The notes: generated from the letters alone by a model not told the origin. DNA of 64,000 nucleotides from an uncultured Ignavibacteriales bacterium (GCA_964611355.1 CAZSYD010000008.1:1-64000); one strand, 5' to 3'. Shown: positions 12,855-38,945, counted from the first letter of the stretch. A program made the numbers and translations.

Positions 12855-12911
12855 GTTGGATTATCGAAGTGGCCCATTCATCTTCTTGAACATATCACTT
12901 TGCGAACACGC

Positions 12912-12943
12912 AAAAAAAAACGGCACCGGGAAGGCGCCGTTTT
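12912..12943. terminator. bidirectional intrinsic terminator
   Basis: A9-CGGCACC-gggaa-GGCGCCG-TTTT between convergent genes. Confidence 0.7.
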
Positions 12944-12969
12944 AGTCCAGGTTGTATTATCACGAAGCT

Positions 12970-13569
12970 TTATTTTCTACGACGGAGAAGTCCCAGCCCG
13001 GTCAGACCGACGCCAAAGAGCAACATCGTGGCCGGTTCGGGAATGGCGCTGGTGCTGACTACTAAGGTAACTCTCTCTATCACGTAATAGTGGCAATCGG
13101 GGTCGAAGGAAAAACCGAAGTTACCGTCAACCGCGAAATCGGTCAGATCATCGATAAGATCAAGATCATTGAAATTGAAGCTGAGGTTGGTTCTGTTTTC
13201 ATAACCGCCGATCGGGTCTGACCAAGTGGCGATAGGGACATCCAAACCGCCAAAGTAATCCTCAAAGCCGGAATTGGGGTCGTCAAATTCGGTTATACCG
13301 AGGGCGGCGTTATCACGGAGGTTCATATAGAGGAAGTTTTCTTCAGCCCGCCAATTGTAGATGCCTTTGAAAGTCAAAGTTGCGCTGTAGATTTCATCGT
13401 CCACATCCCACAATGTTCCCAGGCCCCATGTGTATGCCTTGTCATGATTCAGGCCGCCATTGAGCGGGCTGAAAGCATCAGTGGCGTAAGTGTATATGGC
13501 TGCCTGCGTAGAAACGGCGCCGAAAAGCATGGTGGCCAGGACGGCTGCTATGGTTAATGTCTTTTTCAT
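12970..13569 (-). CDS. PEP-CTERM sorting domain protein
   Basis: Signal peptide; C-terminal IPEPATMLLFGVGLTGLGLLRRRK. Confidence 0.92.
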   Translation of the reverse strand: MKKTLTIAAVLATMLFGAVSTQAAIYTYATDAFSPLNGGLNHDKAYTWGLGTLWDVDDEIYSATLTFKGIYNWRAEENFLYMNLRDNAALGITEFDDPNSGFEDYFGGLDVPIATWSDPIGGYENRTNLSFNFNDLDLIDDLTDFAVDGNFGFSFDPDCHYYVIERVTLVVSTSAIPEPATMLLFGVGLTGLGLLRRRK

Positions 13570-19410: not shown

Positions 19411-19441
19411 CAGCCCGCTGTCTGGCGGGCTGTTTTTTTTT
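19411..19441 (+). terminator. intrinsic terminator after rocD
   Basis: CAGCCCGC-tgtctg-GCGGGCTG followed by a T run. Confidence 0.8.
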
Positions 19442-19693: not shown

Positions 19694-19722
19694 TTGACTT
19701 GGTTTGGCGGCTGGCTTAAATT
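19694..19722 (+). promoter_or_regulatory. candidate sigma-70 promoter of the triplicated membrane operon
   Basis: TTGACT-N17-TAAATT ~170 nt upstream of 19889. Confidence 0.45.
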
Positions 19723-19888
19723 TAGTCTTTATTTTTGCTATCGGTCATCGGCCGGCTGCCATGGTTCTTGTGAAACGCATGCCGATAAACGGCGGACTGG
19801 TTTTTATCGTCTGATGATTAAACAAAATGGGTTACGTTCGCGTTTGACGGCAGTTATAGCGCGATGACCGAAAATATAAGGAATCGTT

Positions 19889-21142
19889 ATGAATAGACGG
19901 CTTTGCGCTTTTTCTTCCTATGCGGTTCTGTTCTTTGTCCTGCTGATTCCCCTGCAAATCACAGCTCAACCGGAGACTATGGGCGACAGCGCGGCAGTAG
20001 CCAAACCGGCTTATGATTCGGCCTTTATCAAAGAACAGACGTCGCAGTCAGCCTTTAATATCGCCGCGAAGGATCGCGATAACGATGCCGGCGGTGCCAT
20101 CAGGTTGACCTGGGATCTTTCGCCTGATGATTTTGAAAACGGCAACGTCAAGGAATACCTGATCCTCCGCAGTAAATCGGCTCAGGGGCCTTTCGATGAA
20201 TTGGGAAACGTCACCCGGGGCGTGGGTAGTTTTATCGATAACCAGGCCGAAATGGGTACGCAGTTTTTCTACAAAATCGTTGCCTTAAACTACGAAAAGG
20301 TAAACAGCGAGTATCTCTGGAAGGCAAGCAGCGAATCGGCCGTGATCGGACCGGTCAAATCGAGCGCGCAGTGGTTTAACGCCGACCGCAAATATATATT
20401 TATCGGCATAGTTATTCTTTGCGCCGCCATAATATACTTCATTTACGCCGCCAAGTCCGGCAAGAGTCTTTATATCCGGAAGATTGCCGGAATAGAGGAG
20501 GTTGAAAATGCCGTTGGCCGCGCCACCGAGATGGGTCGTGCGATTTACTACATCCCAGGCATCAATGATATGGACGACGTTCAAACACTGGCCAGCGTGA
20601 CCATTCTGGGTCGTGTTTCAATCATTGCGGCGGAAAATGATACTCGTATCGATGTTCCCGTTTCACGGTCGATGGTTATGGTTACGGCCAAGGAAGTGGT
20701 CAAGGAGTCATATAGTAAGGCCGGGCGGCCCGATTCATTTCAGGACGATCAGGTTCGATATTTGACCGACGACCAGTTTGGTTATGCTGCTGCCGTTGAC
20801 GGCCTTTTTGTCCGCGAAAAACCGGCTACGATTTTTATGATTGGCGCGTTTTTCGCTGAGTCGTTAATCATTGCCGAAACGGGTAACAGCATCGGCGCCA
20901 TTCAGATCGCCGGTACGGCGATGCCGGCCCAGTTGCCTTTCTTTGTGGCGGCGTGCGATTATACACTGATCGGTGAAGAGCTGTTTGCCGCATCGGCCTA
21001 TCTTTCGCGTGAGCCGAAGCTGCTTGGATCGCTCAAGGGTCAGGATGTCGGCAAGGCCATTTTCCTCGCCGCTATTGTGATTGGAATAATACTGGAAAGT
21101 CTGGGCGTATGCAATGTTTCTTCACTTTTTGAAGCACATTAG
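19889..21142 (+). CDS. module 1 subunit A: signal peptide + FN3-like domain + TM + DUF6754-like domain + TM
   Basis: FN3-like (IRLTWD...YLILRS...FFYKIVA); conserved IRKIAG...AVGRATEMG...REKPA...FFAES...AGT...PFFVAACDYTLIGEELFAASAYL. Confidence 0.8.
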   Translation: MNRRLCAFSSYAVLFFVLLIPLQITAQPETMGDSAAVAKPAYDSAFIKEQTSQSAFNIAAKDRDNDAGGAIRLTWDLSPDDFENGNVKEYLILRSKSAQGPFDELGNVTRGVGSFIDNQAEMGTQFFYKIVALNYEKVNSEYLWKASSESAVIGPVKSSAQWFNADRKYIFIGIVILCAAIIYFIYAAKSGKSLYIRKIAGIEEVENAVGRATEMGRAIYYIPGINDMDDVQTLASVTILGRVSIIAAENDTRIDVPVSRSMVMVTAKEVVKESYSKAGRPDSFQDDQVRYLTDDQFGYAAAVDGLFVREKPATIFMIGAFFAESLIIAETGNSIGAIQIAGTAMPAQLPFFVAACDYTLIGEELFAASAYLSREPKLLGSLKGQDVGKAIFLAAIVIGIILESLGVCNVSSLFEAH

Positions 21143-21162
21143 AAGAATAAGGGTTTAATTAA

Positions 21163-21837
21163 ATGAGACGTGAGATTCCGTTAGCAATTACGTCTATAGT
21201 TGGTGTTGCCTTCGCGGTGGCCTATTTTATCCCTCATGAGCCGTTCAATAGATTTGAACACTGGTTTACCGACTGGTTTGTGATTATCGCCGCTTTCGCT
21301 ATCTGGCTGGGAGCGTTAAACCTGATGAAGATATCTTTCACGAAGGTTATCCGAAAAAACAGGGATTGGCCGTATGCCACACTGATTATAATATCCTTTT
21401 TAACAATGGCCTTCATCGGCTTTTATGAGGGTTACCGCGGGCTTTATGCCGATCCTCCGTTCAGTTTTCGTGATCCCGGCACCGCTTTTGACTGGATGTA
21501 CGTCAATGTATATTCCGCCCTTTCGGCGACGATGTTTGCGCTTCTGGCGTTTTTTGTCGCTTCGGCTTCGTACCGGGCTTTTCGGGCCAGAAACCTTGAG
21601 GCGACGCTGCTTCTTCTGGCCGCCTTTTTTGTCATGCTGGGGCGGGTTCCGGTCGGCGATATTCTCACTGCCTGGCTCCCGCGGGATTTCCAGATGTCGC
21701 AATGGGCCAACTGGATTATGCAGGTACCCAATGTTGCCGGTCAGCGCGCCATTATGATCGGTATCGCACTGGGCCTGGTGTCCATGTCGTTGCGAATAAT
21801 ACTCGGAATTGAGCGGGCCTACCTGGGAGGTGACTGA
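21163..21837 (+). CDS. module 1 subunit B: polytopic membrane protein of unknown function
   Basis: ~6 TM segments; ATMFALLAFFVASASYRAFRARN motif; RAIMIGIALG...LRIILGIER. Confidence 0.8.
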   Translation: MRREIPLAITSIVGVAFAVAYFIPHEPFNRFEHWFTDWFVIIAAFAIWLGALNLMKISFTKVIRKNRDWPYATLIIISFLTMAFIGFYEGYRGLYADPPFSFRDPGTAFDWMYVNVYSALSATMFALLAFFVASASYRAFRARNLEATLLLLAAFFVMLGRVPVGDILTAWLPRDFQMSQWANWIMQVPNVAGQRAIMIGIALGLVSMSLRIILGIERAYLGGD

Positions 21838-22820
21838 TGAGGACTAAAGAACTATTAGTCTCCGGAATTATTGTACTTTGTCTTTTGATCTGCAAATTTA
21901 TCCTGCCCAAGCCGATTCAATTTTCGACGACAACCTCGGTGCTGGTTATGATTCTTCTTGGGCTTGTCTTTGTTGTTATTCTGATTTTAACCATACAGGG
22001 GAAGTTTATCGGCCGCCGAGTTGTATTTCTCCTGGTCGGGATATCCTTGCTTCTTCCGTTTTTTATGAAGTTTTCTCTGCCGCTCCAGATTTCTCCCGAG
22101 GTTCAGGAGGTTTTTGATTCACTTGAACGGCTGCCTCCCGGTTCCAAGGTCCTGTGTGCTTTTGACTATGATCCGCCGTCGGCGCCGGAGCTCCAGCCGA
22201 TGGCCGATGCCTTTATTGAATATGCTTTTGAACGCGACTTGAAGGTGATTATTATGGGACTTTGGCCGCAGGGGCCGCAGCAGGCCGATCAGGCTATCCA
22301 GGCTGCCTTTAAAAAGTATCCTGAATTACGGAAAAAAATTAAATATGGTGTTGACTACGTCAATCTTGGCTTTCAAGCCGGGAATGAGTTCGTTATCCTC
22401 AGAATGGGCGAGAGCTTCAAAGCCATGTTCCCCAAAGACATGTACAATACCCCGTACGATTCGATTCCACTCGTCAAAAACATCAGGAACCTTTCCAATA
22501 TAGATTTTGCCATGAACTTCTCTGCCGGCAAGCCCGGAACCGCCGAATGGGTACAGGTGGCGGTTGACCGTTTTGACCTGCCGATGGCGGCCGGAAACAC
22601 GGCCGTTCAGGCTCCAATGGTTTATCCTTACCTTAAGGCAGGCCAGTTGCACGGTCTTATGGGCGGCATGACGGGCGGAGCTGAATTCGAAAAGCTGACC
22701 AGAAAACCGGGCAAGGCGACCGGCTATCTGCTTTCGCAATCATTCGCACATATGGTCGTCATTGCCTTTGTTATCATCGGCAATGTCTCTTTCATACGAC
22801 AAAGAAGGGAGAGAAAATAA
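21837..22820 (+). CDS. module 1 subunit C: membrane-anchored alpha/beta-domain protein of unknown function
   Basis: N-terminal TMs, FDYDP..PE.PM, YG.DYV.LG, YPY...Q..GL.GG..GAAE, C-terminal AH...IIGN TM. Confidence 0.8.
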   Translation: MRTKELLVSGIIVLCLLICKFILPKPIQFSTTTSVLVMILLGLVFVVILILTIQGKFIGRRVVFLLVGISLLLPFFMKFSLPLQISPEVQEVFDSLERLPPGSKVLCAFDYDPPSAPELQPMADAFIEYAFERDLKVIIMGLWPQGPQQADQAIQAAFKKYPELRKKIKYGVDYVNLGFQAGNEFVILRMGESFKAMFPKDMYNTPYDSIPLVKNIRNLSNIDFAMNFSAGKPGTAEWVQVAVDRFDLPMAAGNTAVQAPMVYPYLKAGQLHGLMGGMTGGAEFEKLTRKPGKATGYLLSQSFAHMVVIAFVIIGNVSFIRQRRERK

Positions 22821-23456
22821 ATGGGATTCTGGGAAGTATTCGGGGTCTGGCTGGCGGCGCTGATGACCATCGGCATCATCTCCTTTCTTTACAGGGATAA
22901 CATCCTGTATAAGGCTTGCGAGGCAATATTCGTCGGAGTATCGGCCGGTTACTGGTTTGTCATTTACTACTGGGACATGCTGTACAAGAAATTCTATGTG
23001 CAGGTGTCCGATCCCACCAATCCGGAAAGATATATTCCCTGGTTTGGATTTGCCCTGGGTATTTTAATGTTGACCAGGCTGTTCGGCAAAGTCGGGTGGC
23101 TGTCGCGCTGGCCTCTGGCTTTTGTCGTCGGCGCTACGGCCGGTCTTTACATGATGATCTATTTTGTCTCCAATGCCATGGTGCAGGTCTCCTCGACTAT
23201 CGTTCCCATTTTGCAGGGGAGCGCCCCTGATATCATTGCCAACACAGTCATCGCCGTCGGAACGTTCTGCGGGCTGGTTTATTTTTTCTTTTCCAAGGAA
23301 CATAAGGGCGCTTTTGGCGGCGCCGCCAAGATTGGCGTCTGGTTTTTGATGATTACTTTCGGCGCTTCGTTCGGATACACTGTAATGAGTCGTATGTCAC
23401 TCATGATTGGCAGACTGGATTTCCTTTTTGGGAAGTGGCTTGAGATGATTATATGA
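22821..23456 (+). CDS. module 1 subunit D: polytopic membrane protein of unknown function
   Basis: SFLYRDN..YK..E..FVGVS.GY; YFFFSKEHKGAFG; LMITFGASFGYTVM.R. Confidence 0.8.
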   Translation: MGFWEVFGVWLAALMTIGIISFLYRDNILYKACEAIFVGVSAGYWFVIYYWDMLYKKFYVQVSDPTNPERYIPWFGFALGILMLTRLFGKVGWLSRWPLAFVVGATAGLYMMIYFVSNAMVQVSSTIVPILQGSAPDIIANTVIAVGTFCGLVYFFFSKEHKGAFGGAAKIGVWFLMITFGASFGYTVMSRMSLMIGRLDFLFGKWLEMII

Positions 23457-24688
23457 CAAAAATCGCCGCTGTTTTTCTCTGTTTGATCGTCACCCCTATT
23501 TCGGGAGATATTCTTTGGGCCGAGGATCTCTCCCCCGCCGGCAATACTTCCGGCGGCACTTTTTCTTCCGTCGCTCCCTATCAGCCTGCTCCTGCCGACA
23601 ATGTTGTCGCCGTCGATCATAAATATGACAACGGCGGCGTGATTGATATTACCTGGGATAAATCGCCCGACGATCCGCGCGAAATTCTGGGATACAATAT
23701 TTACCGTTCCCGCACCGACGAACCGTTTGAAATGATCGGATTTGTTCTTCCGGGTATAACTTCATTTGCCGACGAAGGCGTCGAAAACGATATCCCGTAT
23801 CGCTACAAAATCGGTACCGTCCGGGAAGGCGGCGAGTTTTTCTCGGATGTCTCGGCGCCGGTTGCGGCCGCCTGGGAGCTTTTCAATTTTGATCTGTTGA
23901 ATCTCTTCCTTTTGGCGATTGTCGTTTGCGGTGCGGTGATCTGGTTTATTTCTTCGGCCAGATCGGGTAAAAAACTTTTTGTCCGCAAAATCGGCGGGCT
24001 TGAGGCGCTGGACGAGGCAGTCGGTCGGGCTACCGAAATGGGCCGCCCGATACTTTTTATTCCCGGTATCCTTGATATGGACGACGTTCAGACATTGGCT
24101 GCGATTACTATCCTTGGGCGGATATCCAGGATTGTGGCTGATTATGACAGCAAGATTCGTATGCCGGTATCGCGGTCGCTGGTAATGACGACGGCGCGCG
24201 AAACGATCCGGGAATCGTATCTGGCCGCAGGCAGGCCGGACGCTTACAGCAACGATATGGTTCAATACATAACCGACGAGCAATTCGGTTACGTGGCCGC
24301 GGTCAACGGTATCATGGTGCGCGAGAAACCGGCCACCTGCCTGTATCTGGGCGCTTTTTTCGCCGAATCGCTTATTCTGGCCGAAACCGGCAACAGCATC
24401 GGAGCTATTCAGATCGCCGGGACGGCTCGGCCGGGTCAATTGCCTTTCTTTGTGGCGGCCTGCGATTATACTCTCATCGGCGAGGAACTTTTTGCCGCTT
24501 CTGCCTACCTGTCCGAAGACCCCAAACAGCTCGGTTCACTCAAAGGTCAGGATGTGGGAAAAGTAGTCGCCATGGCAGCGATCGTCATCGGTACGCTGTC
24601 AATGACTTTGGCTTCGGCCTGGAATATCTCTTTCATGGACTGGGTACTAAGGGTAATGCTGAGTATATTCACGATCAATGTACCGTAG
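23453..24688 (+). CDS. module 2 subunit A (FN3 + DUF6754-like)
   Basis: Paralog of 19889..21142 (AVGRATEMG, CDYTLIGEELFAASAYL). Confidence 0.8.
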   Translation: MTKIAAVFLCLIVTPISGDILWAEDLSPAGNTSGGTFSSVAPYQPAPADNVVAVDHKYDNGGVIDITWDKSPDDPREILGYNIYRSRTDEPFEMIGFVLPGITSFADEGVENDIPYRYKIGTVREGGEFFSDVSAPVAAAWELFNFDLLNLFLLAIVVCGAVIWFISSARSGKKLFVRKIGGLEALDEAVGRATEMGRPILFIPGILDMDDVQTLAAITILGRISRIVADYDSKIRMPVSRSLVMTTARETIRESYLAAGRPDAYSNDMVQYITDEQFGYVAAVNGIMVREKPATCLYLGAFFAESLILAETGNSIGAIQIAGTARPGQLPFFVAACDYTLIGEELFAASAYLSEDPKQLGSLKGQDVGKVVAMAAIVIGTLSMTLASAWNISFMDWVLRVMLSIFTINVP

Positions 24689-24719
24689 GTAACCGATTAA
24701 TGGAGAAACTCAGGCAACG

Positions 24720-25397
24720 ATGAAGCGAACAATACCGGTAATTATTACCTCCGTTGTCGGGACGGTTCTTATTTTTTCCGTTTTTTTCCCGTCCGGCAGG
24801 ACGCTGGGCGAGGATTTCTCGCTGTTTTTTGATATTATTGCCGTTTTCGCCTTTTTTCTGGGGGGCGGCAACCTGGTCAGGATTCATATAACCAAGATTT
24901 ATCGCCAGAGGCCGGACTGGGGTTTTTCCATAGTTACCCTGATCGGCTTTTTTATTACCCTGACGGTCGGCCTTTTCAAGCTCGGTAACGCGGAAGGTAT
25001 TTCCGGTTCGGTAACGGCCGCAGGGTCGCTTTTGCAGGAAATTTTTGTCAACATCATTACGCCGCTAAGTTCAACTATGTATGCGCTGCTGGCTTTTTAT
25101 GTCGCGTCGGCCTCGTACCGGGCTTTTCGGGCCAAGAACAGGGAGGCGACCATTCTTTTGATCGCCGCTTTTATTATTCTGCTGGGAAGGACCCCCTTCG
25201 GTATGATGCTGACCCAGTGGATTCCGGAATCGTTTTCGATATTACAGATTCCCAACCTTGCCGTCTGGATTATGAACTCTGCCAACCTGGCCGGGCAACG
25301 AGCTATTTTGATCGGCGTCGGGCTGGGTGTGGTGGCGATGTCGCTGCGGCTGATTTTGGGGATGGACAGGACTTATCTGGGGAGTGATAGTGAGTAA
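24720..25397 (+). CDS. module 2 subunit B membrane protein
   Basis: Paralog of 21163..21837 (ASASYRAFRAKN). Confidence 0.8.
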   Translation: MKRTIPVIITSVVGTVLIFSVFFPSGRTLGEDFSLFFDIIAVFAFFLGGGNLVRIHITKIYRQRPDWGFSIVTLIGFFITLTVGLFKLGNAEGISGSVTAAGSLLQEIFVNIITPLSSTMYALLAFYVASASYRAFRAKNREATILLIAAFIILLGRTPFGMMLTQWIPESFSILQIPNLAVWIMNSANLAGQRAILIGVGLGVVAMSLRLILGMDRTYLGSDSE

Positions 25398-26307
25398 CAT
25401 CGGTGTAATCATATCACTGATCATTATCTCCGGCGGACTGCTGGCGATACTCATCTATTCACTGCGCGGCCGCGATGTTGACCGTCGCATTATCTTTTTA
25501 TTCGTTTTCATTGCCGTGGCCTCGGCCGTTTTGTTCAATATCGAGTTCAAGGAACATCCCACACTGATTGTAAAAAAGGTTTTTGATAAGATTGAAAACC
25601 TGCCGTCCGGCTCACGGGTATTGATTTCGTTCGACTATGATCCGGCCATGAAACCGGAAGTGCACCCGATGGCCAACTCGTTTGTGCGGCACTGCCTGGT
25701 TAAAGGCCATAAGTTGTGCCTGATGTCGCTCTGGCCGCAGGGACAGGCGTTGATGACCGAAACCCTGGAAGAGGTTATCCTGGAAGAGTTCCCGGAAGCC
25801 CGGTACGGTGAAGATTACGTTATGCTCGGTTACAAGGCCGGCAATGAAGGGGTTCTCAACGTTATTATCACCGACTTTAGAAAAATGTACGCGACCGATG
25901 CGCGCGGTACCAATATCGATTCGATTCCAATTTTTAAAGAGATCAAGTCGGCCAAAGACATGGACCTGATATTGCCGATTGGCGGCGGTAAACCGGGGCC
26001 AAAAGAATGGATTCTGTTTGTCGGCGATCCCGGCAACGTGCCTGTCGCACCCGGTTTGGCCGCGGTGGTGGCGCCCTTGATTTATCCCTATTATCCCAAG
26101 CAGGCGATAGGCCTTTTGGGCGGGGTTAAAGGCGCGGCTGAGTATGAATCGGAGTTGAGGCAGAAATATCCTCGTTTCCGGGACGTTTATGCCCCGGCGC
26201 TGCGCATGATGGGCCCTCAAACGTTGGCTCATATCGTTATTATGGCTTTTATAGTTATCGGCAACATAGCTTTCTTCAGGCGAAAAAGGAGCGAAACCGG
26301 TGCGTAA
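25384..26307 (+). CDS. module 2 subunit C membrane-anchored protein
   Basis: Paralog of 21837..22820 (FDYDP, YGEDYVMLG, GAAEYE). Confidence 0.8.
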   Translation: MIVSNIGVIISLIIISGGLLAILIYSLRGRDVDRRIIFLFVFIAVASAVLFNIEFKEHPTLIVKKVFDKIENLPSGSRVLISFDYDPAMKPEVHPMANSFVRHCLVKGHKLCLMSLWPQGQALMTETLEEVILEEFPEARYGEDYVMLGYKAGNEGVLNVIITDFRKMYATDARGTNIDSIPIFKEIKSAKDMDLILPIGGGKPGPKEWILFVGDPGNVPVAPGLAAVVAPLIYPYYPKQAIGLLGGVKGAAEYESELRQKYPRFRDVYAPALRMMGPQTLAHIVIMAFIVIGNIAFFRRKRSETGA

Positions 26308-27115
26308 GGGTCCGGTCATAATCACGGCCGTGGTCGTCTGCCTGTTTATCGTGAGCTGGATAATCAAGGCGGTTAATGTCCCTGCAGAAGACAGCGTTTT
26401 CAGGGCTTTTGCCCAGGGCTTCGGGGTTACTTTTGCCGCTTTCCTGACGCTGGCCGTCATGTCGTTTCTTTATCGGGACAACCCTTTTTATAAATTCGCC
26501 GAGCATCTCTACGTCGGCGTCTCGGCCGCCTACGCCATGAGTCTGGGTTTCTGGACGACTATCGTCGGTAATCTTTTTCCGCGCATATCGGAGGGCTTGT
26601 GCAACTGGTTCGAAGTCCCGTATACTGAATTTGAATGGCATTTCCTTATTCCTCCGGCTCTTGGGATTATTTTGCTTATGCGGCTTTCGCCGAAGGGAGG
26701 GTGGATTTCGCGCTGGGCGCTGGCCTTTATCGTCGGCACAACCGCCGGATTGAATCTGCCGCGCTTTTTGCGTTCCGATTTTATCGAACAGATTTCAGCG
26801 ACTTTTTTGCCGCTTCTTGTCAACTGGCATGGAATCGGTGACTTCTTTTCAAATCTCTCTCTTTCGGCTTCGGGGCAACTGGTTTCTATTCTTACCAACG
26901 TGGTTATAGTCGTGGGCGTTTTCTGCGGTATCGTTTATTTCTTCTTTTCCAAGGAGCACAAGGGCGCCTTTGGCGCAGCTTCCCGCTTTGGTATCTGGAT
27001 TTTGATGATAACTTTCGGCGCATCCTTTGGATATACCGTCATGGGGCGTATTTCGCTTCTGGTTGGAAGGCTTACCTTCCTTGGGCACGATTGGCTGGGA
27101 CTTATAACGAGGTAA
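26300..27115 (+). CDS. module 2 subunit D membrane protein
   Basis: Paralog of 22821..23456 (SFLYRDNPFYK, FGASFGYTVMGR). Confidence 0.8.
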   Translation: MRKGPVIITAVVVCLFIVSWIIKAVNVPAEDSVFRAFAQGFGVTFAAFLTLAVMSFLYRDNPFYKFAEHLYVGVSAAYAMSLGFWTTIVGNLFPRISEGLCNWFEVPYTEFEWHFLIPPALGIILLMRLSPKGGWISRWALAFIVGTTAGLNLPRFLRSDFIEQISATFLPLLVNWHGIGDFFSNLSLSASGQLVSILTNVVIVVGVFCGIVYFFFSKEHKGAFGAASRFGIWILMITFGASFGYTVMGRISLLVGRLTFLGHDWLGLITR

Positions 27116-27153
27116 TATATAACGGGAGTGAACAGATAAATGGTGGAGCAAGC

Positions 27154-28362
27154 ATGAAAAGAATTGTCTTATTTATGGCGGTGGCGTTTCTCCTGCCTGT
27201 CGCTTGCGGGGCGCAGCAGAAGGGGGTCGCCGATTCGGTCCCGGACGCGGCGCTTCCCGGTTCGCCGGGCAACGTTGCTGCCTTTGATACCCCGCATGAC
27301 AATGGTCATTCGATTACGCTGACATGGGAACTGTCGCCCGACGACGGTCAGGGGAGAAATAGCGTCATCGGCTACCGTATTATGAGGGCCGAATCGCCCG
27401 ACGGGCCCTTTGAGGATCGCGGAATGGTTGCTTCGGGAGCGACCACCAAGAAGGATTCGGGAGTCAAGGAAAAGGAAGACCCGGCTTACTTTCCGAGAGG
27501 CCACGACTTTTACTACAAGGTTGTGGCCCTGTCAGCCGACGCCGAAGCAGCATCGGGTGTGGTCGGGCCGGTTCAGGGAGTCGGTCAATGGTTTAATCCG
27601 AATAAATGGCCGGTTTTGATTTTTGTCGGGGTGTTTACTTCTTTTACTCTTTACTTCATTTCGCGCGCCAAAAAGGGAGCCAAGCTCTATATTCGCCCCC
27701 TGGCCGGTATTGACGCAGTTGACGAAGCTATCGGGCGCGCCACCGAAATGGGCAAACCTATTCTTTACATTCTTGGTCTGGGAACAGCGGCCGATATCGC
27801 CACCATCGCATCTTTTACTATTCTGGGACGCGTCGCTAAAAAAGTAGCGGAGTATCAAACTTCCCTGATTGTTCCCTGTTACGATCCGATCGTAATGACT
27901 ATCGCGCAGGAAACGGTCAAGACCGCGTATTATGACGCCGGCCATCCCGACGCCTACAACGACGATATGGTTTTCTTCATTACCCAGTTCCAGTTTGCTT
28001 ATGTTGGCGCGGTCAACGGTATCATGCTTCGTGAACGTCCCGCGACCAATTTTTATATGGGTAAGTTTTACGCCGAATCGCTGCTTATGGCCGAAACCGG
28101 ATCGCTGGCCGGTTCCGTTCAGATTGCCGGAACCGACGAGGTGACCCAGATTCCTTTCTTCGTGGTGGCCTGCGATTATACCCTCATCGGCGAGGAACTG
28201 TACGCCGCCTCAGCCTATCTGGGTCGTGAGCCGGTCCTTCTGGGATCGCTTAAGGCTCAGGATTACGGCAAGGCTATGGTGCTTATCTGCGGTGTTCTTG
28301 GAGTCATAGCGGCTATTTTGGGCTGGGATTGGTTTGTGAACCTGTTCCAGGTCGGCGAGTAG
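27154..28362 (+). CDS. module 3 subunit A (FN3 + DUF6754-like)
   Basis: Paralog of the other A genes; ATG 27154 follows GGAG and begins a signal peptide (ORF track start 27091). Confidence 0.8.
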   Translation: MKRIVLFMAVAFLLPVACGAQQKGVADSVPDAALPGSPGNVAAFDTPHDNGHSITLTWELSPDDGQGRNSVIGYRIMRAESPDGPFEDRGMVASGATTKKDSGVKEKEDPAYFPRGHDFYYKVVALSADAEAASGVVGPVQGVGQWFNPNKWPVLIFVGVFTSFTLYFISRAKKGAKLYIRPLAGIDAVDEAIGRATEMGKPILYILGLGTAADIATIASFTILGRVAKKVAEYQTSLIVPCYDPIVMTIAQETVKTAYYDAGHPDAYNDDMVFFITQFQFAYVGAVNGIMLRERPATNFYMGKFYAESLLMAETGSLAGSVQIAGTDEVTQIPFFVVACDYTLIGEELYAASAYLGREPVLLGSLKAQDYGKAMVLICGVLGVIAAILGWDWFVNLFQVGE

Positions 28363-28376
28363 GAAGGAGCAGGAAT

Positions 28377-29021
28377 ATGAAAAAAGAAATACCTCTTTTT
28401 ATTGTTCTTATCACCGGCACATTCATGGCGATTCAGTTCTTTGTGCCGCACGGGACTTCCGAGTACGTCTATGAATATATGCTGGACTGGACGATCATCA
28501 TCGGCATATTCGCTCTGGCCCTGGGAATATGGTCTTTTATCCGGGTAAACACCGATAAAATCAGGCGCAAAGCCGAGAACTGGCAGTATGCTATTATTGC
28601 TATCGCCGGGCTGGTTGCAATGACTTTGTTCGGTACGACTGCAATGACATTGCTTGGCGCGGAAAGTACCGGATTGGAATCGTATATGTTCCGCCATTTC
28701 TTCAACTATATCATGATCCCGATCCATTCCACCATGTTTTCGCTCCTGGCGTTTTTTATCGCTTCGGCTGCGTTCAGGGCTTTCCGGGCGCACTCGGCGC
28801 TGGCTACGCTATTACTCCTGTCGGCGCTGATTATCATGTTAAGGTTCAATCCCTACCTCGGCCCGCTGGGCTCGCTCGATGCGAAGCTGGCTTCGTGGAT
28901 TATAAATGTGCCAAACCTGGCAGCCAAACGCGCCATTATAATCGGAATCGGTCTGGGGATGGTGGCAACGGCGCTCAAGGTTATCCTGGGTATTGAACGT
29001 TCCTACATGGGCAAGGATTGA
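28377..29021 (+). CDS. module 3 subunit B membrane protein
   Basis: ASAAFRAFRA motif; ATG 28377 (MKKEIP) aligns with MRREIP/MKRTIP of the paralogs. Confidence 0.8.
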   Translation: MKKEIPLFIVLITGTFMAIQFFVPHGTSEYVYEYMLDWTIIIGIFALALGIWSFIRVNTDKIRRKAENWQYAIIAIAGLVAMTLFGTTAMTLLGAESTGLESYMFRHFFNYIMIPIHSTMFSLLAFFIASAAFRAFRAHSALATLLLLSALIIMLRFNPYLGPLGSLDAKLASWIINVPNLAAKRAIIIGIGLGMVATALKVILGIERSYMGKD

Positions 29022-29881
29022 TGGAGGCCGGAATGAATATAATGGAACGCATTAGTAAACTGGATCGGCGGTGGGTATTTCTGGTACTGGCAATAGTCGT
29101 AGTGATATCATTGCTGATCGAATTCAGAACACCGATCCGGGTAAATAAAGAAGTGCGCACAGTCTATGAATTCGTCGAAAGTTGCGAGCCGGGTAGTTAT
29201 GTCCATCTGGCTATTGATTACGACCCCGGTTCGCTGGCCGAAATGCACCCGATGACTTATGCCATTATGGAGCAGTTGCTGGCTAAGGATATAAAGGTAA
29301 TCATGACGGCCCTGTCCCAGAATGGCCCCGGAATGGCCGAGCAGGCTATGCTTGAAATAATGGATTCGGTAAAGATTTTGCACGGCAAGGAAGTTATCTA
29401 CGGTGAAGATATAGTCTTTCTGGGGTACAAGCCGTATCCGGCCATTGTAATAATGGGCATGGGTCAGAATTACCGGCTGTCGTTTCCCAGCGATTATTAC
29501 AATACTCCGATCGACAGCCTGCCGATGATGCGGAAGATTGTCAACTACGACGACATCGAGGGCATCATCCTGATCACCGGCACTAGCGGTATCGACTACT
29601 GGATTGCCTATGCCAACGGTCGATACAACGCCAAACTGGCGGTCGGCGTCACCGGCGTTATGGCGGCCGATTATTATCCGTACCTCCGGTCGGGTCAGAT
29701 TTTCGGACTGATGGGCGGTATGCTCGGCGCGGCGGAATATGAAAAACTGGTCGGTAAGCCGGGCCCGGCCACGGAGGCGATGCGGGTCCAGGTCTGGGCT
29801 CATATCGTCATAATCCTCTTTATCATCATTGGCAATATCGGGTATTTCCTGTCCCGACGAGCGAAAGGAGGGGTACAATGA
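29018..29881 (+). CDS. module 3 subunit C membrane-anchored protein
   Basis: IDYDP, YGEDIVFLG, YPY..SGQ..GLMGG..GAAEYE. Confidence 0.8.
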   Translation: MMEAGMNIMERISKLDRRWVFLVLAIVVVISLLIEFRTPIRVNKEVRTVYEFVESCEPGSYVHLAIDYDPGSLAEMHPMTYAIMEQLLAKDIKVIMTALSQNGPGMAEQAMLEIMDSVKILHGKEVIYGEDIVFLGYKPYPAIVIMGMGQNYRLSFPSDYYNTPIDSLPMMRKIVNYDDIEGIILITGTSGIDYWIAYANGRYNAKLAVGVTGVMAADYYPYLRSGQIFGLMGGMLGAAEYEKLVGKPGPATEAMRVQVWAHIVIILFIIIGNIGYFLSRRAKGGVQ

Positions 29882-30615
29882 TGACCTGGGAAACGATTCT
29901 CTGGACGACAGCCGCCATTCTTTTAACTCTGGCGACCTTTTCCTTTCTTTATCGGGATAATCCCTTTTACAAGATCGTCGAGCATCTTTTTGTCGGTGTA
30001 TCGGTCGGATATTTCACCATCATCCTGTGGTATAACGGCCTGATGCCGACGCTCTGGGATCGACTTGTGGACGGCAAATGGTGGTATCTGATTCCCGGTC
30101 TTTTGGGAGTGCTGATGTGGTTCCGTTTCTCCAAGAAAATGAGCTGGATTTCAAGATACCCGATTGCCATATATCTGGGCATTGCCACCGGTGTCGCCAT
30201 ACCGGTGGAGATGCAGAATCGTGTCAACCGACAACTGGCCAATACGATGATTTCGCCCGATTTCGCTTCCGGCTTCTGGACCGGCTTTTCGGACGTGGTA
30301 ATCATCATCGGAGTTTTCTGCGGACTGTTTTATTTCTTCTTCTCGGTTCCTCATAAAGGCGCTTTTGGAAGCGTGGCCAAACTCGGTATTTATATACTGA
30401 TGATTGGTTTCGGCGCTTCATTTGGCTATACCGTCATGGGACGTATCTCGCTCTTTATTCAGCGCGTGCAGTATATTCGTGACTGGGCCGGCATGTGCGT
30501 AGACAGAGGCGGCGGCCCTCAGGCCATGATGTGGATTATAATTTTATTGATTGCACTTCTGATTCTCCTGGAGATACTAAGGCAGATGCGAAAGAAAACG
30601 GCTGAAATGGTTTGA
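29878..30615 (+). CDS. module 3 subunit D membrane protein
   Basis: SFLYRDNPFYK, FGASFGYTVMGR; one extra C-terminal TM. Confidence 0.8.
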   Translation: MMTWETILWTTAAILLTLATFSFLYRDNPFYKIVEHLFVGVSVGYFTIILWYNGLMPTLWDRLVDGKWWYLIPGLLGVLMWFRFSKKMSWISRYPIAIYLGIATGVAIPVEMQNRVNRQLANTMISPDFASGFWTGFSDVVIIIGVFCGLFYFFFSVPHKGAFGSVAKLGIYILMIGFGASFGYTVMGRISLFIQRVQYIRDWAGMCVDRGGGPQAMMWIIILLIALLILLEILRQMRKKTAEMV

Positions 30616-30635
30616 TAACGAGAAGAGTAATTCCG

Positions 30636-30664
30636 AGGCCTCGCTGACGCGGGGCCTTTTTTTT
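30636..30664 (+). terminator. intrinsic terminator ending the 12-gene operon
   Basis: AGGCCTCGC-tgac-GCGGGGCCT followed by a T run. Confidence 0.8.
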
Positions 30665-31108
30665 GGTTAAAAAAAATCGTCGGAGTGTAAAAAAACAGTG
30701 AACATTTTTCCCCAAAATTAGTATATTAATATAGGAGGCGGGGAAACGAAAGATATCTTTCGAGCCTTCTTACATCACCATACTTTCCTGTGATCAGATT
30801 TTTCGGGGGAAGAATAAGAGGTTTGTTTATGACCGATTTTGTTGTAATGCAATGACTTATGTGAATGATGTAAGCTTTTGTGTATTAGCGAGATCATAAA
30901 TAAACTTTTTATATATGATTGTAACCGATTATGCAGTATGAGGGTATAGGAAATAAATTTTCGACAAGCCCAAGATTTTCCTTGACAAACCGCAAGGGAA
31001 AGCCTTTTTTCAATCAAAGGAGAGCTCCGAACATCTTTATGGGCGTTTATGGCTTGTTTGGCCCGAAAAAGGGAGTTTTGAGGGTGTAACGCGAAAGCGA
31101 GGTGAAGA

Positions 31109-34550: not shown

Positions 34551-35084
34551 TTATTCTTCGCCTTTCATTTGTTTGCGCCAGGCAGCCAATTCCTGCGCGG
34601 CGCGATCATCTTCGATGTCCAATATCCAGATACCGGCCAGATAAGAATCAGAGGTAACTTCAACTTTCAGTTTGTCGGTTAAGCGATAGGCCTTGAAGCC
34701 ATGGTCGTCAATAAAGACAATATGCATCAGCTTTCCGTCGGATGTTGATTCAATGCGCGCTTCGGGCATTTGGTCGCGAAAATCTATAAAGCGAATATCG
34801 GCCGATTCCGGAGCCGGTGGCGGTTTCAAATTTTTACGCGTCCGCCAGCTTTTACGCTCAACGAGTACCTGGATTGATAAAAGCCGTCCCCTGGAATCGA
34901 TATCAAAGGACAGTTGAGGCGAATCGAGATAAGAGAAGAATTTTCCTTCCGGAAAAAGGGACACAATCAGGGTTTCCTCTTCCGCCTGATAAAAAGCCCG
35001 GCTGAAAGATTCCCCTTCGGCCGGGCTTTGAATAAAAATCCTGATGCCTTTCGCGCTGTTCAGTTTTTCGGTTTCTTTTCCCAT
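34551..35084 (-). CDS. hypothetical protein with two DUF2283-like repeats
   Basis: FYQAEEETLIVSL...SFDIDSRGRLLSIQVL and DGKLMHIVF...VEVTSDSYLAGIWILD; overlaps the end of cpoB. Confidence 0.55.
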   Translation of the reverse strand: MGKETEKLNSAKGIRIFIQSPAEGESFSRAFYQAEEETLIVSLFPEGKFFSYLDSPQLSFDIDSRGRLLSIQVLVERKSWRTRKNLKPPPAPESADIRFIDFRDQMPEARIESTSDGKLMHIVFIDDHGFKAYRLTDKLKVEVTSDSYLAGIWILDIEDDRAAQELAAWRKQMKGEE

Positions 35085-35881
35085 GCTTCGATTTTATCCC
35101 TGACCTGTTCAAATTCGACGGTGCCCGGAAAATCGTTTTTCAGAATCAGGAAATATTCGAGAGCCTTCTTCTTATCGCCCAAATCCTCGTAACAGCGACC
35201 CAGCTTAAAGTAGGCGGTGGCCCGTTTTTCCGAATCGGGATAATTATCAAGGACTTTTTTGTATTCCTCGATAGCCCGTTCGAACTGCCTCATTTCATAA
35301 TACGCCTCGGCAATCCAGTATTGGCTATTGTCGGATAGATCGCCATTCGGGCAGTATTTAAGATAGTCGGAAAAGCCGGAAATAGCCAGATCGTGCTGAC
35401 CGCGATACATATCCTTGAAGGCGTTGTCCCACAGGCGACGGCAATCGACCGACGATACCATACTGGTATCATAAGCGCTGGAATCGGCGGCCGTGCTATC
35501 GGCTGGTTCTTCCGCAGTAACCGGGGGCTGGATGAGACCGCTCTCTCCGCCGGTATGCTGCGCCAGTCGATAAACAAGCTGCTGCAGATCGCGTAATTGG
35601 TTTTCTATCTGCGTCAGCCGGGCGCCCGTTTCGTCAAGGGCCGTGCGCATTTCAACCCGAAGACGATTCTCGTTTTCAATTCCGCCGGTTATGAGCGAAT
35701 CGACTTTATCAAGCTTTGCCTTCAGCAGTTTCTGGTCGTTACGGACCTGGTTGACTTTTTCTTCCACCCGCAAAACATCCTGCTTGGCGGCGCAACCGGA
35801 CAGCAGAAACATTAGAAAAGGCAGAGATATCGCGGCAAGGCGGTATCTCCATCCACGTATGTTTTTCGTAAAGCGCATCAA
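35060..35881 (-). CDS. cpoB: Tol-Pal system protein CpoB/YbgF (TPR), lipoprotein-like
   Basis: LSGC lipobox, coiled coil, TPRs with NSQYWIAE; follows pal. Confidence 0.88.
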   Translation of the reverse strand: MMRFTKNIRGWRYRLAAISLPFLMFLLSGCAAKQDVLRVEEKVNQVRNDQKLLKAKLDKVDSLITGGIENENRLRVEMRTALDETGARLTQIENQLRDLQQLVYRLAQHTGGESGLIQPPVTAEEPADSTAADSSAYDTSMVSSVDCRRLWDNAFKDMYRGQHDLAISGFSDYLKYCPNGDLSDNSQYWIAEAYYEMRQFERAIEEYKKVLDNYPDSEKRATAYFKLGRCYEDLGDKKKALEYFLILKNDFPGTVEFEQVRDKIEAWEKKPKN

Positions 35882-35887
35882 CGTGGG

Positions 35888-36397
35888 TTACTTCTTAAGT
35901 ACCCGGAATTGGCCGCGGCGGTTTTTCGCCCAGGCGTCTTCATTATGACCCGGGTCGGCGGGCTGTTCCTCGCCATAGCTTATAGTCTCGATTCGGTCAA
36001 CCGAAATACCGAGATCGACCAGATAATTCTTAATCGAGACGGCCCGCCTGTCACCCAGCGCAAGGTTGTATTCCACCGTGCCCCGTTCGTCGCAATGACC
36101 TTCGATCTTGATGATAATATCCGGGTTGCCTTTGAGAGTTTCCGCATTCTTGTCAAGGCGCAGTTTTTGGTCACTGCGAATGTTGTACTTGTCAAAGTCG
36201 AAGTAAACGGTCTGGAAATCGGCCTCGGTAATCTCCGGCGGCGGGGGCGGTGGTGGCGGTGGTGGTGGCGGTGGTGGTGGTGGCGTCGTGTCCACCTCGG
36301 TTATCGGTTCTTCTACCGGCGGTTTCACCTTTTTTGGACAACCGGTCAAAAAGGCCACGATAATTATCAGTCCGATGACAATCAGGAGTTTCTTCAT
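35888..36397 (-). CDS. pal: peptidoglycan-associated lipoprotein
   Basis: LTGC lipobox; VYFDFDK, IEGHCDERGTVEYNLALGDRRA, SYGEE, NRR. Confidence 0.95.
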   Translation of the reverse strand: MKKLLIVIGLIIIVAFLTGCPKKVKPPVEEPITEVDTTPPPPPPPPPPPPPPPPEITEADFQTVYFDFDKYNIRSDQKLRLDKNAETLKGNPDIIIKIEGHCDERGTVEYNLALGDRRAVSIKNYLVDLGISVDRIETISYGEEQPADPGHNEDAWAKNRRGQFRVLKK

Positions 36398-36513
36398 CTT
36401 ATCCTCCTTGAAATCTTTTTACAATTGAAGATTATTTTCTCTCCCTTTATTGAAAACACGGTACTATAATGCCTTACTCAACGCAACTAATATTTACCGT
36501 TTTATGAAAAATT

Positions 36514-37818
36514 CTACCTCTTATATCCTGACCAGGCCGGGTTGGAATTTCCCCCTCCCGTGGTCAACCGCTTTTGTTCATTACCAAAGCGGTCCATAAT
36601 GAATATCTCTTTTGACCCTGTTCGTGTTGACGAGAAGATTACATGATTACCGTCAGGCGACCAGTGCGGATTTTCGTTACCGCCTTTATTGGTCAGAACG
36701 CGAAAATTGTCGCCGGTAACGTCAATCGTGCAGATATTAAAACGCCCCCGAACGCGGCTGACGAATACTATATTGCTTCCTTTTGGCGACCAATCCGGTG
36801 AATCGTTATAATTGCCTATGTAGGTCAGACGGCGAACGTTTATGCCGTCCCTGTCCATGATATAAATCTGAGGCGTGCCGGTTCGGTCGGAAGAGAAAGC
36901 GATCTCACTGCCCGTCGGCGACCAGCAGGGGCTTGATTCAATAGAAGCCGTATACGTCAAACGCCTTTTTATCCGTCCGGAGCGATGCAAGAGGTAAAGT
37001 TCGGCGTTGCCGTCGCGCGAAAGGGCGCAGATGATTTCTTTACCGTCGGGAGAAGCTCGGGCGGCGGAATTGATACCCGGATAGGCGGCCAGAAGATTAA
37101 CCGAGCCGTCGCGAGAATCATATTGATATAAATACGGATCGCCGCTCATGTAGGATGTATATAGTATTTTTTGACCGTCGGGGGCAATGGACGGCGAAAT
37201 GTTAATCGAGCCGTTGCCGGTCAACTGATGGATACCGGCGCCGTCATAGTCGCAAAGAAAAAGCTCCTTGTTGCCGGTGCGATTCGAGATGAAGCAGACG
37301 CGGGTATCGAAAATACCCTCGTCGCCGGTCAGGTAATAAATGATTTCATCGGCGATCTTGTGCGCCAGCCGCCTGTAATTGGAAACCGGCGATCTGAATT
37401 TGCCCCGGGCGAATTCAAGCCCCGACCTTGTGGAGTGAAGACTGTATTTTATGGTTAGATCATCGCCGGTAAATTCTCCCGCGCCTTTGACGATATATTG
37501 CGCTCCCAGGTGTTTCCATCCCAGCAAAGTCATAACCTTGAGTTCCATATGACGCATGTAGAACGTATCCAGCTCGATAATTTCGTAGAAAGGTGAAAAA
37601 TCGAGGTCATTGCGGATGATCTCCGCCAGGCGGACCAGGATGACCGAATCTTCCACCGGGAGCCGGGTGTTTTCTTTACCGGTGAAACGCTCAACGGCGA
37701 TTTTTATCTCTTCGAATCCGTACCTGGGATCGAGCCGGCCGTAATAATCTTCTACTTGGGCGAAAGCGAAGGTTGCAATTAGAAAAACGGCAATTGTCAG
37801 AAGCGGCATTTTTTTCAT
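36514..37818 (-). CDS. tolB: Tol-Pal beta-propeller protein
   Basis: NDLDFS N-domain, AHKIAD, PD40 repeats (P.WSP.G). Confidence 0.93.
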   Translation of the reverse strand: MKKMPLLTIAVFLIATFAFAQVEDYYGRLDPRYGFEEIKIAVERFTGKENTRLPVEDSVILVRLAEIIRNDLDFSPFYEIIELDTFYMRHMELKVMTLLGWKHLGAQYIVKGAGEFTGDDLTIKYSLHSTRSGLEFARGKFRSPVSNYRRLAHKIADEIIYYLTGDEGIFDTRVCFISNRTGNKELFLCDYDGAGIHQLTGNGSINISPSIAPDGQKILYTSYMSGDPYLYQYDSRDGSVNLLAAYPGINSAARASPDGKEIICALSRDGNAELYLLHRSGRIKRRLTYTASIESSPCWSPTGSEIAFSSDRTGTPQIYIMDRDGINVRRLTYIGNYNDSPDWSPKGSNIVFVSRVRGRFNICTIDVTGDNFRVLTNKGGNENPHWSPDGNHVIFSSTRTGSKEIFIMDRFGNEQKRLTTGGGNSNPAWSGYKR

Positions 37819-38522
37819 TCTTGTCTCGGTTCGTAGGGAAATTCAAGATGGATGCCGATGATATCGTCCCGGAAATCGGCCGGCAGCGGCGGCAAGGGGG
37901 ACGATACCTGCACCGCTCGAAGGCAGGCCCGGTCGTAAGCCGGGATGCCGGATGATTTCTCGATAACCGGGTCGAGCACCGACCCGGATCGAATGACCTG
38001 AAAATAGACAACGCACGAGAGCGGCTGGTTGGCGGCCACCGGATTTGACCAGTGACGCTGAATTTTGCCGAAAGCCTGCACAAAGAAATACGGGTAGTTG
38101 AAACCCGCGTTGTCGATTGCCACCGAACCGAACATAGTTCCGGGACCAAGCTGGTCGCTTACGTCGGTTCCGCCTTTCCTGTCAACGTCGCCTTTCCGGG
38201 TCTTGTCCTTATAACCGGTATCCCGTCTCGGTTTTGGTTTTTCTTTCTCCTTTTCAAGCTCATAACTTTCGGTCCGCGACTCGGGTGTAACGATGGGCGT
38301 GGCGACTTCTTCTTTGAAAACCGCCTCCGGTATCGTAATCTCCGGCATTTTGCCTTTAATCAGGGCCGGATCGCCAAGCGGCGGCAGTTCAATAATATTG
38401 ACCGCGGCGTATTCGAAATCGGGCCTTACTATGGCAGCAAAGGGATTAAGCAGGGTGACCATCAAAATCAGTCCGAAATGGAGAAAAAAGGAATAGAGGA
38501 AATCTTTGCTCGTTATTTCCAT
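37815..38522 (-). CDS. TolA/TonB C-terminal domain protein
   Basis: N-terminal TM with S..LH, C-terminal KIQRHW...SSGIPAYDRACLRAV...PLPPLP. Confidence 0.85.
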   Translation of the reverse strand: MEITSKDFLYSFFLHFGLILMVTLLNPFAAIVRPDFEYAAVNIIELPPLGDPALIKGKMPEITIPEAVFKEEVATPIVTPESRTESYELEKEKEKPKPRRDTGYKDKTRKGDVDRKGGTDVSDQLGPGTMFGSVAIDNAGFNYPYFFVQAFGKIQRHWSNPVAANQPLSCVVYFQVIRSGSVLDPVIEKSSGIPAYDRACLRAVQVSSPLPPLPADFRDDIIGIHLEFPYEPRQE

Positions 38523-38945
38523 TTATTTCCTCTTTTTAGGCTTGTCATTTTCGATAGGCGATGTTACCAGGCCCAGGTATTCGACGCCCATCTCTTTTAA
38601 TCTGGCCACCACGTCAACTACGGCGGCATAGATAACGCCGCTGTCGGCCCGGATATAGACCGAGGAAGTGTTCTTGTTTCTCATCACCGCGTCCAGCCGT
38701 TCTTCAAAGTCGGGAAGGCGCACCCAGATGTCATCGATAAAAATGCCTCCCTTTTTATCTATCGTCAGGACCACGCCTTCGCCCAGATCTTCCTGGGCCA
38801 CCGTTCTGGTTTTGGGGAGGTTAACGTCTATCCCCGATTGAAGCATCGGGGCGGTAATCATAAAGATTATCAAAAGTACCAGCACCACGTCGACCAGGTT
38901 GGTAACGTTAATGTCGGCCATATGCCGGTATTGCCTCTTGATCAC
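38523..38945 (-). CDS. tolR: TolR/ExbD
   Basis: DINVTNLVDVVLVLLIIFMITAP, IRAD. Confidence 0.9.
   Translation of the reverse strand: MIKRQYRHMADINVTNLVDVVLVLLIIFMITAPMLQSGIDVNLPKTRTVAQEDLGEGVVLTIDKKGGIFIDDIWVRLPDFEERLDAVMRNKNTSSVYIRADSGVIYAAVVDVVARLKEMGVEYLGLVTSPIENDKPKKRK

Follow-up and report, generated by a model that had tools for sequence, protein, structure and literature searches.

How a membrane complex might be energised, and what it might move, is the question raised by a 12-gene operon in the DNA of an uncultured Ignavibacteriales bacterium (GCA_964611355.1). The operon lies in a stretch of 64,000 nucleotides (nt) (CAZSYD010000008.1:1-64000), which is referred to here at its full length as the window and provides the numbering of its features. 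From position 19889 to 30615, on the + strand, the list of open reading frames (ORFs) shows 12 co-directional genes in which four kinds of subunit gene, A, B, C and D, follow one another in the order A-B-C-D three times. An earlier note on this DNA had described tightly coupled genes with overlapping or abutting junctions and a closing terminator, and had taken them to encode an undescribed membrane complex, either a secondary transporter or ion-translocating complex with three specificities or one large hetero-oligomer. The layout is borne out by the coordinates and by a terminator scan. The reading put forward here, tentatively, is uptake by interchangeable inner-membrane modules that are driven by one shared ATPase, E, acting with a second protein, G.

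Among the four subunits, A alone is covered by a catalogued family. The three operon copies A1, A2 and A3, and the A subunit of a fourth A-B-C-D module on contig C68 of the same genome (2.57 Mb, 96% complete), match Pfam DUF6754 (PF20539; gathering score 27 bits) along the whole length of the model with 396.6, 404.9, 394.0 and 390.9 bits, respectively (E 1e-117 to 1e-121). PF20539 is a catalogue entry without a function, and its members are often annotated 'fibronectin type III domain-containing protein'. For B, C and D, neither Pfam nor NCBIfam yields a family at E <= 0.01, secondary-carrier and tripartite ATP-independent periplasmic (TRAP) families included. Profiles of the B, C and D families (74 sequences each) retrieve no PDB chain at E <= 1, the A profile (74 sequences) finds fibronectin type III (FN3) domains only, and the 74 C members share no consistent family at E <= 1. 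A Pfam scan of the 12 operon proteins reveals no ATP-binding cassette (ABC) ATPase, binding-protein, redox, flavin or Fe-S family, and the NCBIfam scan reveals nothing. The earlier note had claimed that ABC ATPases, binding proteins and redox proteins are absent from the operon and that the complex is undescribed, and both statements survive these searches, the second also a Foldseek search with a C-D model (described below). The idea that A and C, and B and D, are hidden duplicates of each other was rejected, since hhalign gives probabilities of 0.8% and 15%, respectively, with one transmembrane (TM) helix aligned only.

The topology of the subunits was derived from hydropathy and the positive-inside rule. 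A begins with a signal or N-terminal helix, followed by an FN3-like domain outside, a TM helix, a cytoplasmic DUF6754 domain of ~200 amino acids (aa) and a C-terminal TM helix, while both termini of B lie inside. C starts with an invariant cytoplasmic DRR motif and continues through one or more TM helices into its outward-facing domain, a further TM helix and a basic tail inside. Natural fusions of C to D, found in three of the 150 representatives listed (P0263, P0280 and P0356), bear on the same point independently of hydropathy: the linker contains exactly one extra TM helix in all three, which places the C terminus of C inside and the N terminus of D outside. The existence of such fusions also argues that C and D act together.

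All of the motifs quoted in the earlier note are invariant across the three copies: GRATEMG and CDYTLIGEEL.AASAYL in A, ASA..RAFRA in B, DYDP and G.AE.E in C, and SFLYRDN and FGASFGYTVM.R in D. Over diverse phyla, the conserved residues are R211, T213, E214, Q296, R309, E324, E330, D357, E363, E364, D386 and K389 in A and D110, E118, D173, D201 and E285 in C, and the last TM helix of C keeps the polar residues H305 and N316 in 98% of 125 diverse sequences. The C profile retrieves 5219 representative proteins (50% clustering) at E <= 0.001, of which 1236 remain at E <= 1e-30, and a D homologue is present in the cultured planctomycete Stratiformator vulcanicus. Within these conserved frames the subunits accept inserted domains. 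Among the 120 long A forms listed, 12 carry FN3 and 27 carry PQQ-like propellers, and one long A form includes the PMT_2 glycosyltransferase family; FG-GAP is inserted in B, CARDB and HEAT in C, and an EF-hand in one form of D. Two third-module B genes of related loci (L062 14929-16707 and L048 15211-16986) encode an FG-GAP-repeat insert of ~370 aa (E 5e-28). In locus L031 (9938-12325), a DUF6754 protein encoded on its own, with none of B, C and D close by, carries an S49 (SppA-type) peptidase at its outward-facing C terminus (E 1e-43).

The three copies in the window are well separated from each other, with identities to the first copy of 47-52% (A), 40-49% (B), 36-39% (C) and 42-51% (D). Their history was followed in 72 related loci kept from 617 relatives, nearly all of them Zixibacteria by record title. 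Records titled Acidobacteriota or Ignavibacteriales (L046 and several others) behave as members of the window's own GTDB phylum, and a query with the phylum of genome G124 returned the same genomes as the window's phylum. In local profile searches the A-B-C-D order recurs in nearly all 72 loci, the few exceptions being locus ends, split ORFs and isolated A genes. Three complete sets are present in at least 26 of these loci. When 122 concatenated modules (the four of the host genome and 118 from loci within the length filters) were placed in a maximum-likelihood tree, three clades of 50, 36 and 36 modules emerged that follow position in the array, with support of 0.95-1.0. Modules 1, 2 and 3 of the window fall in the matching clades, beside the same-position modules of L008, L011 and L012, and the C68 module forms a long branch. 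Clades that follow array position mean that the triplication is older than the sampled radiation and has been retained, as the earlier note had supposed. Single modules stand alone on C68 and in other genomes, which disfavours the proposal of one large hetero-oligomer.

The degree to which paralogues have diverged differs along the subunits. Identity within clades and between clades is 34% and 29% for the A ectodomain, 57% and 36% for the outside domain of C, 61% and 44% for B, 59% and 44% for D, and 77% and 63% for the DUF6754 domain. Paralogue divergence is greatest in the outward-facing parts and least in the cytoplasmic DUF6754 domain, a pattern that makes the three specificities suggested by the earlier note plausible.

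A candidate energiser is encoded on a different contig, C89, where the genes lie in the order E, F, G. E (616 aa) is the product of the one PF13941 (MutL) gene that the genome holds, and it matches the Pfam model end to end (model positions 1-450; E 1.6e-129, 433 bits), with an additional weak match to Hydantoinase_A and a C-terminal extension of ~130 aa relative to MutL. E contains DCGSTTTK, DIGGATTD and GSGG, motifs that are taken here to be the phosphate-1, phosphate-2 and adenosine motifs of the ASKHA (actin-fold) proteins; by its sequence E looks like a working ATPase, and a sequence search against solved structures gave it no match. F (275 aa) is exported and has a C-terminal anchor, and G (377 aa) has no Pfam family. 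ABC_tran (PF00005) matches none of the three proteins.

Three kinds of observation connect this cluster with the modules. First, E and/or G lie directly beside A-B-C-D arrays in 34 of the 72 loci, in 15 as a divergent g-f-e cluster and in 11 as a co-directional E-G pair, the others being cut by locus ends. Second, the two components are distributed together across genomes, where G was used as the marker of the E/G pair. A is found in 121 of 121 genomes of the phylum (80 of 80 genera), with 2-6 matches each, and G in 119 of them, nearly always in one copy; five genomes with other labels have one to five copies of A and one strong copy of G each. A and G are both present in 46 of 51 Cloacimonadota genomes and both absent from the other five, which are small (1.5-1.6 Mb); neither gene occurs without the other. 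These five may belong to one clade and hence reflect a single loss, and the distance between A and G in Cloacimonadota is often hundreds of kb. Third, a natural fusion of 1057 aa from Cloacimonadota consists of an E-like part (39% identity, E 3e-118) and a G-like part (26% identity, E 4e-23), and a relative of 993 aa has the same composition. Fusion, adjacency and co-occurrence together argue that E and G act together and that the module is not ATPase-free.

These observations bear directly on the secondary transporter of the earlier note, that is, a self-contained transporter or ion-translocating complex powered by an ion gradient and needing no ATPase. Such a complex would agree with an operon and window flanks in which no ATPase gene is found, and with the conserved His and Asn in a membrane helix of C and its conserved acidic residues. 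It is nevertheless highly improbable, as it accounts neither for the adjacency of E and G to the arrays nor for the perfect match of A and G in presence and absence in Cloacimonadota, nor for the one G per genome that accompanies the modules in the window's phylum, and the best-conserved part of the module is a soluble cytoplasmic domain.

Apart from the GlmL/MutL protein encoded in operons for B12-dependent glutamate mutase, the family to which E belongs has no known representative. Actin-fold reactivases that serve B12 enzymes pair an ATPase with a swivelling domain, and E and G resemble them in the full-length MutL match of E, in a probable swivelling domain in G and in the occurrence of E-G fusions; they differ in being tied to membrane modules rather than to a B12 enzyme, and in the C-terminal extension of E. 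Fusions of this kind, ~1000 aa long and made of a MutL/GlmL-like ATPase and a G-like part, one of them with an N-terminal zinc ribbon, lie at L088 3033-6206 and L089 6844-9825 (both on the - strand), the former beside a gene for a B12-binding-domain protein and the latter beside a GT4 glycosyltransferase gene; they form a paralogous branch of the E/G pair that is independent of membrane modules. A system in which the membrane modules handle a cofactor, of the cobalamin type or another, that E/G services could draw on the strength of the MutL match and on the B12-binding neighbour of one fusion. The chance that this is the correct explanation is very slim: A-D and the regular neighbours include no B12-binding or B12-enzyme family, the other fusion stands beside a glycosyltransferase instead, and four to six modules per genome are hard to reconcile with one cofactor.

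The predicted structure of G, with a predicted local distance difference test score (pLDDT) of 82.9, retrieves nothing at E <= 0.001 in Foldseek and falls into three parts when aligned with VIA-align. The N-terminal part is a barrel-sandwich of ~67 residues (Z 8.0 to RnfC and 7.4 to NqrA), for which weak Pfam matches occur in homologues. The central part resembles a swivelling beta/beta/alpha domain, with Z 9.7 to enzyme I of the phosphotransferase system (PTS; root-mean-square deviation 2.5 over 104 residues), 9.0 to rifampin phosphotransferase, 8.6 to RraA and 8.4 to the pyruvate kinase C-domain, and the last part is a KOW/SH3-like barrel (Z 7-8.4). The catalytic motif of the mobile (phospho-histidine) domain of PEP-utilising enzymes is G-G-x-T-x-H, and G carries GGETHG, which is one residue short in spacing. 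His168 of G is present in 115 of 139 sequences and is replaced by Q, Y or S in others and by W or P in fusions, and is thus not invariant. Cys356 of A is not among the conserved residues of that subunit, falling below 97% over 266 sequences. A PTS-like phosphorelay from E as kinase through the His of G to the Cys of A was rejected as a general mechanism on these two counts.

The barrel-sandwich of G is also a loose echo of the Rnf and Na+-NQR complexes, as are two polytopic subunits of ~200 aa and subunits with one soluble domain on either side of the membrane. Unlike those complexes, the modules have no flavin or Fe-S family in Pfam, and kinship of B, C and D with Rnf/Nqr subunits was rejected since their profiles match no Nqr or Rnf chain at E <= 1, even though the copy of the PDB that was searched contains Nqr/Rnf structures.

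For the module itself, the C-D fusion P0280 was modelled from 94 aligned sequences, with a mean pLDDT of 79.3 and a predicted template modelling score of 0.71. The outside domain of C is predicted with a pLDDT above 90 as a three-layer alpha/beta fold in which six strands alternate with helices; the D half has a pLDDT of 50-90 and was barely tested by VIA-align. Foldseek finds no match for the C-D model in the PDB at E <= 0.001. VIA-align returns a flat list for the C domain, with Z scores of 8-10 (maximum 10.2) to MT0777, KTN/RCK domains, short-chain dehydrogenases/reductases and sirtuins, and a flat list of Rossmann-type matches indicates a common fold and not a family.

The preferred reading, uptake by interchangeable modules powered by one ATPase, would join these components in the following way. 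Each A-B-C-D set would form one hetero-oligomer of the inner membrane, with the polytopic B and D as its core, C presenting its Rossmann-like domain on the outer face, and A placing a variable binding domain (FN3 in this operon) outside and its highly conserved DUF6754 domain in the cytoplasm. The four diverged modules of the genome would all use one soluble energiser, E with G, which may dock on DUF6754 so that ATP drives conformational cycles of the module. The job of the system would be translocation across the inner membrane, probably uptake, with different substrates for different modules. Uptake is favoured because many paralogues are served by one energiser, because divergence is concentrated outside, because canonical importers are scarce and because some of the neighbouring genes fit. 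With regard to importers, the host genome has one adjacent pair of BPD_transp_1 permeases (C6:8029-9398) and no BPD_transp_2 or SBP_bac_5 match above the cut-off. Neighbours that fit uptake are TonB-dependent receptors, gcvP, FTCD, and S51 and S8 peptidases.

Comparison with energy-coupling factor (ECF) and ABC importers would hold in logic and not in ancestry. Common to both are one cytoplasmic ATPase unit per genome that faces two to six membrane modules, two polytopic subunits together with an outward-facing domain, and possibly a coupling helix, a role that the invariant cytoplasmic loop of B could play. The modules differ from such importers in having no ABC ATPase, no ABC or ECF permease family and no binding-protein fold, and in an ATPase of the actin/ASKHA fold.

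Several observations weigh against uptake by such modules. No part of the system resembles any transporter at the sequence level, and nor does the C-D model in Foldseek. The outside domain of C is, as modelled, a single generic Rossmann-like domain and not a two-lobed binding protein, and the ectodomain inserts (FN3, PQQ-like propellers, FG-GAP, CARDB and HEAT) seem by family to suit the binding of proteins or glycans above that of small solutes. Presence in every genome of the phylum suggests a housekeeping role more than a choice of nutrients. In addition, ~24 ABC ATPase domains remain in the host genome, encoded elsewhere than the operon and the E, F and G genes, and secondary carriers may also import. 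In nine single-module or non-Zixibacteria loci the neighbouring genes are mixed, with radical SAM and other genes accompanying those named above. The genes that flank the operon in the window offer no better guide. The earlier note had identified them correctly as phosphoenolpyruvate carboxykinase (PEPCK), saccharopine dehydrogenase, a class-III aminotransferase and pyruvate phosphate dikinase (PPDK), and had drawn from them a role in the uptake of amino acids or peptides; this functional step fails, as these amino-acid genes are not conserved neighbours over the 72 loci (aminotransferase 1, saccharopine dehydrogenase 0, PEPCK 0, PPDK 5, against 12 for tolB). Amino-acid or peptide uptake is possible on other and weaker grounds.

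Some of the same observations would be explained by an envelope or surface-assembly machine, in which ATP-driven modules export, insert, anchor or process envelope components such as lipid-linked glycans, proteins or surface layers. The outward inserts are protein- or glycan-binding modules, the solo A of L031 is fused to a periplasmic peptidase, one long form includes a glycosyltransferase family, and the system is universal in the phylum. Moreover, e-f-g lies just upstream, on the same strand, of tolQ/R/A-like genes, tolB and pal in 12 of the 72 loci; this link is limited to one phylum, has gaps of 290-520 bp and may be mere synteny. Envelope assembly is considered unlikely on balance, since a biogenesis machine would rarely have four to six paralogous modules per genome, genes for glycosyltransferases or lipid carriers are not regular neighbours in the nine loci, and the taxa of the Atlas clusters suggest that the system may be present in lineages reported to be single-membrane and in archaea. 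The window has a Tol-Pal cluster of its own at 34551-39790 (- strand), with TolB at 36514-37818, a YbgF-like tetratricopeptide-repeat protein at 35060-35881 (both by Pfam) and ORFs of the size of TolQ, TolR, TolA and Pal; in the host genome, e-f-g is on a different contig from this cluster.

The inserted domains also bring to mind an outside-in sensor or adhesion complex, whose ectodomains would bind ligands or surfaces and pass force or a signal to DUF6754 and the actin-fold protein with no net transport. FN3, FG-GAP, propeller and CARDB domains are classic adhesion and recognition domains, the cytoplasmic partner E is of the actin fold, and the terminal KOW/SH3-like barrel of G is of the kind that docks peripheral subunits on complexes. 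Such a complex is quite improbable in view of the fourth module, the A subunit of which has no FN3 part or other ectodomain while B, C and D are kept. The weak Hydantoinase_A match places E in the enzyme-like hydantoinase/GlmL branch, which is distinct from the filament-forming actins; two strongly conserved polytopic subunits whose polar residues in the membrane are also conserved would be needless for signalling alone, and no signalling output domain is linked to the system.

The features of the operon and its surroundings are collected in Table 1. Several genes within the operon overlap, by 1 nt (B1/C1), 4 nt (D1/A2, B3/C3 and C3/D3), 8 nt (C2/D2) or 14 nt (B2/C2), and C1 and D1 abut. Intergenic gaps, of 20-38 nt, are confined to the surroundings of the A genes (20 nt after A1 and 31 nt after A2). 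For A3 and B3 the listed TTG start is probably too far upstream, and the true starts are probably ATG 27154 and ATG 28377, respectively; both are in frame and are preferred because the resulting N termini (MKRIVLF and MKKEIPLF) resemble those of the other copies.

Table 1. Positions in the window of the operon genes and of the elements that precede and follow them
Feature	Position	Strand	Basis and remarks
Sigma-70-like promoter	19694..19722	+	TTGACT, 17 nt, TAAATT; 9 of 12 matches in promoter scan
Structured 5' leader ahead of A1	19723..19888	+	RNA fold
A1	19889..21142	+	Pfam DUF6754, E 4.8e-119; FN3 matches (titin and others) via family profile; topology from hydropathy and charge
B1	21163..21837	+	Polytopic, ~6 TM helices; invariant SYRAFRA in cytoplasmic loop; no Pfam or PDB match
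C1	21837..22820	+	TM helices on either side of an outward-facing Rossmann-like domain of ~215 aa
D1	22821..23456	+	Polytopic membrane protein, N terminus outside; no Pfam or PDB match
A2	23453..24688	+	Pfam DUF6754, E 1.4e-121; 52% identity to A1
B2	24720..25397	+	49% identity to B1
C2	25384..26307	+	36% identity to C1
D2	26300..27115	+	51% identity to D1
A3	27091..28362	+	Pfam DUF6754, E 3.1e-118; 47% identity to A1
B3	28329..29021	+	40% identity to B1
C3	29018..29881	+	39% identity to C1
D3	29878..30615	+	42% identity to D1
Intrinsic terminator, end of operon	30635..30668	+	10-bp stem with 7 GC pairs, then TTTTTTGGTT (T run); strong

In an alignment with six relatives, the CTTGAC (-35) box of the promoter and parts of its TAAATT (-10) box are conserved, and the leader that follows is poorly conserved in sequence. 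The leader folds (19723-19895) with -54.6 kcal/mol (z -3.04; 0 of 200 shuffles as stable) and includes a long-range stem, and a search of Rfam gave nothing below E 0.2. It also contains a 17-codon ORF (ATG 19761 to TGA 19814) that overlaps a small hairpin and T run at 19780-19794. The leader may serve as a leader-peptide attenuator, a role for which its structure speaks and against which its poor conservation and the lack of an Rfam match weigh. The terminator scan places the strong terminator behind D3 at 30635-30658, and a second terminator lies at 19411-19432, 3' of the upstream gene. Elsewhere in the window, the region 11262-13569 encodes a 530-aa protein with a C-terminal FlgD_ig-like (sorting-type) domain and, on the opposite strand from it, a 199-aa PEP-CTERM protein, and a FlgD_ig-like domain is also found beside modules in L075 and L070.

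None of the criteria tested places the system in a known kind, and searches of the literature by family names and broader topics, with supplements outside their reach, retrieved no paper on it. It is possible, and is suggested here with considerable reserve, that the system represents a previously unrecognised type of primary active machine in the membrane, a third solution in addition to the ABC and ECF systems, in which a reactivase-like actin-fold ATPase (E) and a swivel-domain protein (G) are common to several interchangeable four-subunit modules, each with its own outward-facing recognition domains, that import or move different substrates, and that such machines occur in all Zixibacteria and broadly among uncultured bacteria. 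The system is made testable by the fusions of C with D and of E with G that exist in nature, and by the cultured planctomycete that holds a D homologue. Its prevalence is considerable, extending from all 121 genomes of one phylum and 46 of 51 in Cloacimonadota to thousands of metagenome protein clusters, with three of the four subunits having no family entry. If it is true that an actin-fold ATPase powers exchangeable modules, this would be a new principle of membrane energisation, and it would fill a large gap, in substrate uptake or envelope building, in the predicted physiology of many uncultured anaerobes.

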